Shown piece after piece: positions 39,077 through 41,286 of a stretch of DNA of 64,000 nucleotides (position 1 is the stretch's first letter; each line of letters opens with the position of its first letter). The DNA comes from a virus. Under the pieces are notes generated by a model. It was given only the letters and a program-made list of their open reading frames with translations. It was not told the origin of the DNA and ran no database searches. Position numbers and translations under genes: made by a program. Location: positions 5,585-69,584 of the IMG/VR virus record IMGVR_UViG_3300029908_000019; one strand, 5' to 3'.

Positions 39077-41191
39077 ATGTCTCGATTTACTGACGCTATC
39101 CGTAATGAAATAGGTCCTAATGTAGCATCGTTATCCAAAGCAGCCACTGACCCTTCTTACTGGTCATTGTCTAATTTGGATATTGATTTATATGACAACC
39201 AAGTTGCCATGATTGATGCTGTCTGTGACTTGAATAAACCTTATATTGGGATACTTGCTTCTCGTGGATCTGGAAAAACTTTTTGTGCTGCTATTGGGTT
39301 AGTTAAACTTTGTCTGGATAATCCTGGTTTTCGTATTGGCATATTTGGTCCAAAGATGGAGACAGCTAAACGATTAGTTAAAGAAGACATTATCGGTCGT
39401 ATTCTTACTCCCTCCTCCAAAGTGTATACCCAGATTGACTGGGAACATTCCTCCAACTCATTTATCCATTTTAAAAATGGTTCCACTATAAAAGCATTGT
39501 CAGCCTCTCCTACTGCAACACAAGAATCGGAGCACTTTCATTGTGTTTTGGGTTCTACTGAAGTAAAAACTCGATTGCAAAATAAGCAAATATGCGATAT
39601 CCTTATAGGTGAGGAAGTATTATCTTTTAATTTAGATTCAAATCAGGAAGAATTTAAACCAGTAGTAGCTATTTCTAAAAAGCCTACTATTAAAAAGATA
39701 TATAGAATTAGAACTGAAAATGGTAAAGAATTGACTTGCACAGAAGATCATAGAATTTATACGAAAAATAGAGGCTATATAGAAGCAAAAGATTTGACTC
39801 TAGAAGATACGGTGATTACTATTGGGGCATTAACAAATATAAAATCCATAGAGATTGTTGATGAGAAAGTTGACTATGTTTATGATATTCAAGTAGAGAG
39901 CAACAATAACTTTTTTGCCAACGATATTTTGATTCATAATTGTGTTGTTCTTGATGAGTGTTTAACTGAAGAGTCTATAATTACTCTTGCAGATGGAACT
40001 AAAAAGACTATTGGAGAAATTGTTAAAAGTAAGACACCCGTTAAAGTTCTTTCTTTTGATGAAAAACAGAATAAACTTGTGGAAGCTGATGTTATAGATT
40101 TCAAGAAGATCCCACTAAAAAAGCAATTACTAGAGATCAAATTGGAAGATGGAAAGACTATTAAATGCACAGAAGATCACAAATTCTATACTAGAAATCG
40201 CGGATGGGTAGAGGCTAAGAATTTGACTGAAAAAGATGATTTAATAAATATTAAGATATGTGAAGGTTGTGGTATTACATTTATTCCTTTAAAGAATGCC
40301 AGATTCTGCACCAATAAGTGCTATGTTAAATGGTTTGAGAAGAACAAGAGAAAGGAAGAAAGAATCTGCCAGCAATGCAAAAAACCTTTTCAGGCTGTAA
40401 CTAGAGCTAATGCTAAATTTTGTAGTTATAATTGTGAGAAAACTAGAATTTGCCTGTATTGTCAGAAACCCTATGTTCGTATTGGTCAAGAAAAATATTG
40501 TTCTCCAGAATGCAAGAAAACAGTTAGAGTATCTAGAATTAAACCACGAACTGGGTGTGTAGTTTGTGGGAAACTCTCAAGAGATAGAGATACTACCCAT
40601 TGCATGAAGCATAATAATTGGACTGATACTACAGGTGTTCCTGTTATCACAAAATGTATTATATGTAATAATGAATTTACTATTGTAGAGAACAGGAAAT
40701 TAACTTGTTCCGATGTATGTCTATCTAAATCTCGTAGTGATAGGATGACTCTGAATAATCCTACTAGTAATCCAGAAACTGTAGAAAAGATTAAAGAAAG
40801 TCTTAAAATTTTCTTCGAAGAGCATCCTGATAAATTGTCTGAGCGTTTAAAGAATTTTAAAAATGCTCCTGTATATACCAGGGGCAAAATGACTCGCCCA
40901 GAGCAAGCCATTATAGCTATGAATATTCCTAATCTTAGATATACTGGGGATGGTACTAAATGGATAACTTTCTCCAATAAGAAACATAAGAATCCAGATT
41001 TTTGGTTTGATGGAACAGCAAAGGTTGTTGAAGTTGGAGATTTCCAATTTTGGCATACAAAAGAAGAAGCTGCTGAAGTAGTTAGACTTTATAAAGAAAA
41101 GAATACGGAATGCCTATACCTTGACGCAGATAATGTTATGAAGAATCCTATTGAAGCTGAAAAGCAGATAAGGAGTTTTCTATGCATATAA
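39077..41191 (+). CDS. terL: Terminase large subunit, N-terminal part, with a mini-intein and a split-intein N-half fused to a Zn-finger/endonuclease-like domain
   Basis: Walker A ASRGSGKT; Walker B CVVLDE flanked by two Hint domains. Confidence 0.88.
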   Translation: MSRFTDAIRNEIGPNVASLSKAATDPSYWSLSNLDIDLYDNQVAMIDAVCDLNKPYIGILASRGSGKTFCAAIGLVKLCLDNPGFRIGIFGPKMETAKRLVKEDIIGRILTPSSKVYTQIDWEHSSNSFIHFKNGSTIKALSASPTATQESEHFHCVLGSTEVKTRLQNKQICDILIGEEVLSFNLDSNQEEFKPVVAISKKPTIKKIYRIRTENGKELTCTEDHRIYTKNRGYIEAKDLTLEDTVITIGALTNIKSIEIVDEKVDYVYDIQVESNNNFFANDILIHNCVVLDECLTEESIITLADGTKKTIGEIVKSKTPVKVLSFDEKQNKLVEADVIDFKKIPLKKQLLEIKLEDGKTIKCTEDHKFYTRNRGWVEAKNLTEKDDLINIKICEGCGITFIPLKNARFCTNKCYVKWFEKNKRKEERICQQCKKPFQAVTRANAKFCSYNCEKTRICLYCQKPYVRIGQEKYCSPECKKTVRVSRIKPRTGCVVCGKLSRDRDTTHCMKHNNWTDTTGVPVITKCIICNNEFTIVENRKLTCSDVCLSKSRSDRMTLNNPTSNPETVEKIKESLKIFFEEHPDKLSERLKNFKNAPVYTRGKMTRPEQAIIAMNIPNLRYTGDGTKWITFSNKKHKNPDFWFDGTAKVVEVGDFQFWHTKEEAAEVVRLYKEKNTECLYLDADNVMKNPIEAEKQIRSFLCI
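39542..39940 (+). mobile_element. Contiguous mini-intein (133 aa) in terL
   Basis: C1 CVLGSTEV, block B CTEDHRIYT, VYDIQV...ILIHN followed by +1 Cys. Confidence 0.92.
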
Positions 41192-41286
41192 AATCTATCA
41201 AAAAGATTGAGAAGACTGATTATGTTTACGATTTAACAGTCAAGGATACCCATTGCTATTTTGCCAATGACATTCTTGTGCATAAT
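39959..41286 (+). mobile_element. Naturally split intein (IntN 39959-~40250 plus fused cargo; IntC 41182-41286)
   Basis: CLTEES...CTEDHKFYT in the first ORF; second ORF starts MHIKSIKKIEKTDYVYDLTV...ILVHN|C with its own AGGAG RBS. Confidence 0.85.

Follow-up and report, generated by a model that had tools for sequence, protein, structure and literature searches.

Can a terminase gene whose Walker B strand is bracketed by two inteins, the second of them divided between two overlapping open reading frames (ORFs), still yield a complete terminase large subunit (TerL), and what does a nuclease that is fused to only one half of a split intein represent? These questions are raised by a locus in the IMG/VR virus record IMGVR_UViG_3300029908_000019, of which positions 5,585 to 69,584 were analyzed as one 64,000-nt stretch, here called the window. 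All positions are given in window numbering, and the source contig is a 69.6-kb fragment. The locus is very probably the natural terL gene of an uncultured jumbo-type phage, in which a cis-splicing mini-intein and a half-fused split intein would both be removed to give TerL. In the split intein, the N-terminal half (IntN) continues in frame into a cargo with an EDxHD nuclease, while the C-terminal half (IntC) opens the second ORF.

Two inteins around the Walker B strand

The locus consists of two ORFs on the + strand, taken from the ORF list and the sequence. ORF1 (39077-41191) encodes 704 aa and ORF2 (41182-42450) encodes 422 aa. The two overlap by 10 nt (41182-41191), and ORF2 lies in the -1 frame relative to ORF1, (41182-39077) mod 3 being 2. 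From 5' to 3', the following features are recognized:

39077..39541, + strand: TerL N-extein (residues 1-155), the ATPase's N-terminal portion with the P-loop (Pfam Terminase_6N, phrog_2)
39542..39940, + strand: intein 1, a contiguous mini-intein of 133 aa at site a (residues 156-288; intein profiles and our own IntN and IntC models)
39941..39958, + strand: bridging extein CVVLDE, six residues, the Walker B strand with the catalytic DE (aligned with [V/C]LVLDE of intein-less alleles)
39959..40252, + strand: N-terminal half (IntN, about 98 aa) of intein 2, inserted at site b (TIGR01445 and our own IntN model)
40259..40717, + strand: five zinc-ribbon repeats of the form CxxC-x9-16-C-x2-3-C/H (regular expression)
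40730..41188, + strand: helical linker and Vsr-like/EDxHD nuclease domain (family profile and fold comparison)
41170..41175, + strand: AAGGAG, the Shine-Dalgarno sequence of ORF2 (read from the sequence)
41182..41286, + strand: IntC of intein 2, 35 aa with blocks F and G and the terminal HN, opening ORF2 (TIGR01443 and our own IntC model)
41189..41191, + strand: TAA stop codon of ORF1, directly behind the nuclease domain (sequence)
41287..42450, + strand: TerL C-extein, starting with Cys+1, 387 aa followed by a stop, with the rest of the ATPase and the nuclease domain of TerL (relatives, phrog_2)

The cargo behind the second IntN comprises about 310 residues, and IntN, zinc ribbons, and nuclease form one uninterrupted ORF. 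The AAGGAG sequence sits within the 3' end of the nuclease coding region, 6 nt from the ATG of ORF2 at 41182. An earlier note, made from the sequence alone, had proposed this arrangement, and re-reading of the sequence confirmed both ORFs, the stop at 41191, the start at 41182, the Shine-Dalgarno sequence, and the separate frame. Its claim of two inteins around Walker B is borne out by profiles, by alleles in which the sites are empty, and by recurrence of the pair in divergent relatives. Profiles and empty-site alleles likewise agree with its description of the first intein as a cis mini-intein of 133 aa. The division of the second, with the cargo on IntN and IntC in the overlapping ORF, is upheld by profiles, independent assemblies, and relatives.

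All residues expected of splicing inteins are in place. Intein 1 begins with Cys1 at 39542, carries TEDH in block B, and ends in IHN followed by Cys+1; it has the sequence motifs of a class 1 intein and is an in-frame insertion absent from orthologous alleles. In intein 2, Cys1 and TEDH lie in IntN, and blocks F and G, HN, and Cys+1 lie in ORF2. The break falls between blocks B/N4 and F, the canonical region of endonuclease insertion, and all catalytic residues are present across the two halves. As in other naturally split inteins, the halves lie in separate ORFs, each joined to its own extein.

Profile searches locate the same parts. Pfam Intein_splicing matches ORF1 in three stretches (E=4.3e-33) and residues 2-35 of ORF2 over profile positions 122-155 of 155 (E=9.3e-8), the score on ORF2 being 32.5 bits and under the Pfam cut-off of 35.8. 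TIGR01445 (intein_Nterm) gives two matches above its cut-off in ORF1, the best stretch in the second IntN being residues 295-372. TIGR01443 (intein_Cterm) matches residues 267-289 of ORF1 and 14-36 of ORF2, both above the curated cut-off (29.8 bits for ORF2). Our own hidden Markov models (HMMs) recognize the N-terminal half of intein 2 with E=3.5e-29 and the start of ORF2 with E=2.5e-16. No other intein parts and no further terL-like signal were found in a scan of the contig. The two inteins of the window, both of class-1 type, are related to one another, with 44% identity over 70 aa and 57% over the C-terminal 35 aa, and their mutual orthogonality is therefore not assured.

The host gene is a Terminase_6-type large subunit. 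The N-extein is recognized by Pfam Terminase_6N (PF03237) at E=2.2e-6. It also matches phrog_2, the PHROG of the terminase large subunit, at E=3e-13, and phrog_2 matches ORF1 and ORF2 alike. A scan of IMG/VR with ORF2 returned 25 related loci, of which 23 span the junction and two lack it; several of the 25 lie on contigs that are 118-193 kb long. Both intein sites are empty in all 23 of the junction-spanning relatives, where the N-extein is followed collinearly by the C-extein in the same frame, at a distance of 18-27 nt. In 19 of the 23, the locus was translated through without a stop and reads ...EHFH[V/C]LVLDE[A/C]HR.... Identity to the intein-less relatives is 61-79% for the N-extein, and the C-extein is 42-88% identical to relatives. 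Since the empty alleles read through in one frame, removal of both inteins leaves a protein collinear with the intein-less relatives: the spliced product has 155+6+387 = 548 aa, compared with 546-554 aa in 17 of the 19 translated loci (L021 and L023 were translated only in part). Among database relatives of ORF2, 87 of 99 have no intein signal by our own HMMs, and one TerL relative is labelled by its source as a terminase large subunit domain-containing protein. The only match among 50,697 deposited phage records is Bacillus phage G gp1 (28.5% identity, E=3e-26).

From this arrangement, we infer a route to TerL that includes one cis- and one trans-splicing event. ORF1 and ORF2 would be translated in a coupled manner, and the location of the Shine-Dalgarno sequence and ATG inside the 3' end of the nuclease region would give near-equal amounts of the two chains. 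Intein 1 would splice in cis, while IntN and IntC would associate and then splice in trans. Together, the two events would produce a TerL of 548 aa reading ...EHFH-CVVLDE-CHRTSD..., in which an intact Walker B is restored. The excised chain of IntN, zinc ribbons, and nuclease, with IntC bound, would be the likely homing enzyme, cutting empty terL alleles near the Walker B codons. A predicted complex of IntN (residues 289-400) with IntC (residues 1-45) scores 0.60, against 0.00 for the best of three controls, with at least 91% of contacts agreeing between runs and a partner pLDDT (predicted local distance difference test) of at least 65. Of 78 solved complexes, 51 attain the mark used for such predictions, as do 2 of 108 mismatches; at or below 0.60, it is attained by only 5 of these 78 complexes and by all 4 passing mismatches of 180. 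The prediction thus lends weak backing to association of the halves and may reflect likeness to solved split-intein complexes.

Two other features were noted in the surroundings. Just upstream of the terminase region, positions 34489-38313 encode a protein of 1274 aa that contains several CxxC pairs as well as extended acidic regions of low complexity. On the - strand, a 163-aa ORF (40486-40977) runs antisense within the cargo coding region; this is probably a chance ORF in AT-rich DNA (36.6% GC).

The stop/start junction of the two reading frames

If the second intein were in reality contiguous, with a nested endonuclease, a single assembly or sequencing indel near 41185 could have broken its frame. 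In favor of such an error, contiguous inteins with the same nuclease are common (78 of 198 classified rows, and 11 complete cases among 54 metagenome loci), and in them the chain runs from the nuclease end into blocks F and G; coverage is also low. The earlier note had singled out positions 41170-41200 for verification. The window stretch is present in metagenomes of peat and permafrost. It occurs in 23 run rows that come from 21 studies of the years 2018-2024, and six of the rows are flagged as possible sources. Contigs of runs X7, X8, and X9, which come from three studies and are not among the flagged rows, bridge 41170-41200 with 0 differences and 0 gaps. The stop/start junction is thus reproduced in three other runs, and no frame-fusing indel appears. 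The contig of run X13 ends at 41190 and does not bridge the junction; gaps in contig cover are not evidential.

Relatives point the same way. The nearest, locus L106 (positions 1-1089 of a 1.1-kb metagenome contig), has a cargo 63% identical to that of the window and the same junction DNA, and its IntC is the same over the 32 residues covered, bar one residue near the contig end. Locus L107 has the arrangement of the window at the DNA level with a different, clean ATGA stop/start overlap and an insertion point three residues further downstream. In four divergent proteins (P0003, P0006, P0009, and P0018; 36-43% identical), TerL N-extein, IntN, zinc ribbons, and nuclease follow one another in the same order, and all four terminate at the same alignment column as ORF1. 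Separate C-terminal halves of site b also occur in relatives: P0154, P0200, and P0234, from three further TerL clusters (77%, 50%, and 42% identity), open with Met and IntC, and the IntC start of P0154 is identical to that of the window. ORF2, moreover, has its own AAGGAG at the right spacing. An indel is therefore largely refuted as the origin of the split, and we give it next to no credence.

A second way of joining the frames would be programmed -1 ribosomal frameshifting within the 10-nt overlap, which would give a contiguous precursor that splices in cis. In favor of this, ORF2 has the -1 frame, and its overlap with ORF1 coincides with the point at which contiguous relatives read through. 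Against it, positions 41176-41191 contain no X-XXY-YYZ slippery heptamer as judged by eye only, and the Shine-Dalgarno sequence with its ATG is a simpler account of ORF2. The ATGA overlap of L107 is typical of termination-reinitiation coupling, and the fully fractured loci L032, L123, and L137 must splice in trans anyway. Frameshifting is hence extremely improbable here. Reassignment of a stop codon was also considered and rejected: TAA, TGA, and TAG each terminate long ORFs in the contig, and because IntC is out of frame, readthrough cannot fuse ORF1 with ORF2.

It could also be that this terL is decaying, either as a pseudogene or alongside another terL copy that is used in its place, and that the split is without function. 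The contig is incomplete, and the cargo of L106 contains a nonsense codon. However, both inteins retain Cys1, TxxH, HN, and Cys+1, the exteins contain no stops and share 61-88% identity with intact relatives, the same sequence recurs across all of the run rows and studies above, and the contig contains no further terL-like or intein signal. Decay of the gene is accordingly considered very unlikely.

Several points nevertheless weigh against a functional, trans-splicing terL. The independent assemblies have a low depth of about 2-7, the three studies behind X7, X8, and X9 may belong to one sampling campaign, and RNA runs X21-X23 contain only 0.07-0.08 of the sampled words. P0003, P0006, P0009, and P0018 are gene calls known as protein alone, without DNA context. 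A second intact terL may lie elsewhere in the genome, given a contig of 69.6 kb and relatives of up to 193 kb, and mis-pairing between the two similar inteins is conceivable from their sequences. In addition, the single short contig of L106 has an in-frame TAA in the zinc-ribbon region, which suggests that the tethered nuclease may be dispensable or decaying in the lineage of the window and L106. This TAA would cut the nuclease off from IntN.

Zinc ribbons and an EDxHD nuclease on IntN

What, then, is the cargo? The earlier note had called it nuclease-like, with zinc-finger repeats and NPDF and VVEV motifs; profile and fold evidence now refines this to a homing endonuclease composed of zinc ribbons and a Vsr-like/EDxHD domain. 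The zinc ribbons, five CxxC...C-x(2,3)-[CH] units ahead of the nuclease by regular expression, are presumed to be the DNA-binding module of this enzyme. Pfam gave no family on the cargo alone even at E<=10. In PHROGs, phrog_1271 and phrog_15471, both annotated as HNH endonuclease, match the zinc-ribbon part only; because no match to an HNH motif was found, the HNH label was not adopted for the cargo.

An exhaustive HMMER search returned 436 homologues of the cargo nuclease at E<=1e-3. In a profile of 52 homologues, P-D-F (40994-41002), a Glu (41030-41032), and a His (41054-41056) are invariant, and at least 90% of the sequences also have a Glu upstream. The window nuclease keeps all five invariant residues of the family as well as near-invariant ones, and the NPDF and VVEV motifs are retained in the conserved domain and include invariant residues. 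A single-sequence phmmer search of the nuclease against the PDB returned only glutathione S-transferase noise (E>0.1), so that the family profile was needed. Searched against 177,635 PDB sequences, this profile matched only 3r3p (E=0.0027) and three Vsr entries (E=0.07-0.11). An AlphaFold2 (AF2) model of the nuclease domain has a pLDDT of 90.7, and its top Foldseek match is again 3r3p (chain B; probability 1.00, E=2.7e-3). With VIA-align, 3r3p_A is matched at Z 10.1 with a root-mean-square deviation of 2.4 over 89 residues, 3hrl (an endonuclease-like protein) is tied with it at Z 10.5, and Vsr follows at Z 8.2 (1cw0) and 7.3. Based on the family profile and on the Foldseek and VIA-align matches to 3r3p and Vsr, the domain is a member of the Vsr-like/EDxHD homing-endonuclease family typified by I-Bth0305I.

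The family was first recognized in fractured genes, as free-standing nuclease genes (Dassa et al., 2009), and was characterized with I-Bth0305I. This EDxHD prototype is a free-standing enzyme encoded within recA, in a group I intron (Taylor et al., 2011; PMC3239194; PDB 3r3p). I-Bth0305I is the nearest solved structure to the window nuclease by both profile and fold, and the two share an N-terminal DNA-binding region followed by a C-terminal Vsr-like domain. Identity is only about 16%, however, and the I-Bth0305I family carries NUMOD-like N-terminal signatures in place of the five zinc ribbons found in the window.

A different concern is that the layout is real and splices while the nuclease on IntN is an inactive relic that no longer homes. 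The in-frame stop in the zinc-ribbon region of L106 and the survival of only the second half of the nuclease in L137 are in keeping with such a relic, and homing-cycle theory expects an endonuclease to decay after fixation (Gosselin et al., 2025 preprint; 10.1101/2025.01.02.630785). The window copy, on the other hand, is full length, keeps the five invariant and the near-invariant residues, folds confidently in silico, and has five intact zinc ribbons, and most relatives still offer empty sites for invasion. A relic is thus judged unlikely, though clearly less so than the accounts based on an indel, a frameshift, or a decaying gene. On the preferred reading, the excised chain would be an active homing endonuclease with empty terL alleles as its target.

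The half-fused layout beside relatives and known systems

The arrangement of the window is one of several in its terminase family, in which both intein sites are polymorphic and double-intein Walker B bridges of 4-6 residues recur. Site a is occupied by a cis mini-intein in P0247 and by a split intein in P0240, and split C-terminal halves are found at this site in P0162 and P0188. The layout of the window is mirrored in P0240, which starts with an IntC for site a, a 6-residue Walker B bridge, and a contiguous Ser1 mini-intein at site b that is followed by Ser+1. P0006 has the arrangement of the window with a bridge of 6 aa, and its second intein is of the Ser1 type. Locus L137 (2059-3607) contains a mini-intein, the 4-residue bridge CVDE, and a split intein whose IntN terminates in a stop at the equivalent point. 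The next frame of L137 contains only the second half of an EDxHD nuclease, which by its sequence looks like a decaying free-standing endonuclease.

A census was taken with our own IntN, IntC, and nuclease HMMs on six-frame translations of 54 metagenome loci found with a cargo alignment:

11 of 54 loci: IntN, nuclease, and IntC in one ORF
5 of 54 loci: truncated versions consistent with one ORF
1 of 54 loci (L107): IntN fused to the nuclease, with IntC in an ORF that overlaps
1 of 54 loci (L106): the same junction with an in-frame stop in the zinc ribbons
5 of 54 loci: fully fractured, or a nuclease ORF followed by IntC in another frame
31 of 54 loci: no intein in the fetched stretch

IMG/VR added two contiguous loci (L038 and L039) and a fractured one (L032). 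Classification of 198 nuclease rows gave 95 free, 78 contiguous, 12 IntN-fused, 3 IntC-fused, 2 fractured, 1 IntN-fused but with a stop, and 7 in other classes, where "free" is the default label for loci off the manual list and may be wrong for some. One such case is L132, labelled "free" although its IntC ORF overlaps its nuclease ORF. Five or six of the IntN-fused rows are superfamily 2 (SF2) helicases of the ResIII/UvsW type.

Searches differed in what they could recover. The exact peptide patterns of the cargo had no match in IMG/VR, and an alignment of IntN plus cargo met mostly generic inteins there, with only L038 and L039 clearly carrying the nuclease and L032 showing a weak, partial nuclease match (E=2e-6). 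Among at most 8000 candidates, a word-index search with the whole of ORF1 recovered only members of its own cluster, TerLs without inteins, and intein hosts that are unrelated; it missed P0003, P0006, P0009, and P0018 and thus says nothing on their rarity. Our IntN and IntC HMMs also missed an intein in L025 that was seen by translation, and the census therefore under-detects divergent inteins.

The L025 intein (4258-6030) belongs to a more distant TerL, with a C-extein 42% identical, and represents a third kind, a contiguous intein of about 400 aa in the P-loop after GSGK, beginning with Cys and ending in HN before Ser, with motifs that appear LAGLIDADG-like by eye. In P0237 and P0239, TerL relatives of about 685 aa, an intein sits close to residue 470 within the C-terminal half, which is the nuclease half of TerL; this is a further insertion site. 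On the 180-kb contig of a related phage with an intein-less TerL, an intein N-region (L018:9507-9791) lies in a large ORF at 7488-11486, about 2.3 kb downstream of terL. Outside the terminases, the helicase genes of L118 (645-4774) and L120 (3-2542) have two inteins each, one of them contiguous with a nested EDxHD nuclease. In the second, IntN ends the ORF and IntC follows several hundred nt downstream in another frame, which is possibly another fractured intein with a different insert. P0007 (3117 aa) and P0031 (2667 aa) give three separate nuclease-domain matches each, which suggests hosts with several EDxHD-bearing inteins.

A FastTree phylogeny of the nucleases, from which L130, L137, and L032 were left out because fewer than 90 profile positions were matched, has local supports only and is unrooted, and so speaks to recurrence and association and gives no direction. 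Intein-associated nucleases form one group of 119 rows with a support of 99. The IntN-fused forms fall into three clusters. The first comprises the window, L106, and P0003, the second P0006, P0018, and L107 (P0009 lies close to it), and the third the helicases. Free-standing forms are interspersed in every cluster, whereas contiguous forms are absent from all three. In the terminase family, the nuclease is fractured (L137), IntN-fused, or free-standing and clustering with these, whereas in UvsW-type helicases it is fractured, IntN-fused, or contiguous. The half-fused state thus recurs in divergent terminases and UvsW-type helicases, beside fractured and contiguous versions.

How the half-fused state relates to fully fractured genes can be seen from the account of Dassa et al. 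(2009; PMC2677866), in which fractured genes combine split inteins with a free-standing Vsr-like or GIY-YIG endonuclease gene. Like those genes, the window locus is broken at the endonuclease-insertion point, has all parts on one strand, and carries a Vsr-like nuclease. Its nuclease 3' end overlaps the IntC ORF by 10 bp, compared with 6-69 bp in the described loci, where the downstream start likewise comes from the end of the nuclease gene. The two differ upstream. In the described loci, IntN ends in a stop, and a non-coding spacer of 27-51 nt, in which a hairpin is often present, separates it from a nuclease ORF of its own, whereas the window has no stop, spacer, or separate start at this point and its nuclease is one chain with IntN. 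The locus is therefore the half-fused state of a fractured gene: it has the fractured layout at the 3' junction and an in-frame fusion at the 5' junction. The phage DNA-metabolism hosts of that study include a terminase, but its intein is split at an atypical point (IntC of 122 aa), and the window intein at the canonical one.

The earlier note had read the locus as an intermediate in intein splitting. The reverse direction fits equally well, namely that a fractured gene lost its upstream stop and is heading toward a contiguous bifunctional intein, since the IntN-fused nucleases sit with free and fractured forms on the tree and not with contiguous ones. Loss of the upstream stop corresponds to step IIIa of the Dassa et al. 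(2009) model, which proposed loss of the nuclease gene flanks as a route to in-frame domains; no description of the partly fused states that the model predicts was found in the available part of that paper. A further possibility, which we put forward tentatively and hold to be plausible but short of probable, is that the half-fused form is a selected, stable two-chain bifunctional homing intein that arose at least three times (in two terminase lineages and in UvsW-type helicases) and bridges free-standing genes and in-frame domains. If this were so, the nuclease would stay covalently on IntN, and translational coupling from the 3' end of the nuclease region itself would supply IntC. The half-fused form would provide an observable bridge, in either direction, between free-standing phage endonuclease genes and in-frame intein domains. 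It would also account for the many contiguous inteins with a nested EDxHD nuclease, a large population that has so far gone undescribed. The Walker B bridge of 4-6 residues between two related inteins would then be one of the shortest exteins known to separate natural inteins, and its splicing would have to be ordered or cooperative.

For one nuclease family, a natural series is now available that includes free-standing, fully fractured, solely IntN-fused, and fully contiguous forms. It illustrates how inteins gain or lose nucleases and makes the Dassa et al. (2009) model testable by phylogeny and experiment. Vsr-like/EDxHD nucleases prove to be common as in-frame intein domains in metagenomes, although they were then not known inside inteins (Dassa et al., 2009) and have since been reported only with split inteins apart from the preprint's own cases (Gosselin et al., 2025 preprint). 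The locus also illustrates that two inteins can flank a catalytic motif only 4-6 residues apart. In terms of application, the site-b pair, which the earlier note had put forward as a candidate orthogonal split intein, is a candidate trans-splicing tool, being a canonical Cys1/Cys+1 split intein with a C-terminal half of 35 aa from a cold acidic habitat, and relatives offer Ser1 variants as further candidates. The module of zinc ribbons and EDxHD nuclease is a candidate programmable nuclease scaffold.

In a literature search made mostly without subscription journals and supplements, no description was found of an endonuclease fused in frame to the N-terminal half of a natural split intein or of an intein pair separated by 4-6 residues; a crAss-like phage is known to have two inteins in a single TerL. 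Among non-canonical inteins of actinobacteriophages, VSR-like/EDxHD-type endonucleases have been associated with terminase inteins (Gosselin et al., 2025 preprint). Endonucleases in a different frame from the splicing domain are also reported there, but the VSR-like gene is antisense in a contiguous intein, and the part of the preprint available to us describes no in-frame IntN fusion. Inteins of mycobacteriophage TerL lie at ATPase motifs, TerL1-e being in Walker B (Kelley et al., 2016; PMC5050341). For several of these, splicing and homing-endonuclease activity have been demonstrated; they were assayed as single-chain reporter fusions. The word "split" occurs 0 times in that paper, and in the accessible text no spacing of 4-6 residues appears and no EDxHD nuclease is named. 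Naturally split phage TerL inteins have been recovered from metagenomes in AceL-TerL and GOS-TerL (review PMC11766414). Both are split atypically near the N-terminus, with an IntN of 25 or 37 aa and an IntC of 104 or 115 aa, whereas the window intein is split at the canonical point, with an IntN of about 98 aa that bears the nuclease cargo, an IntC of 35 aa, and a second intein adjacent to it.

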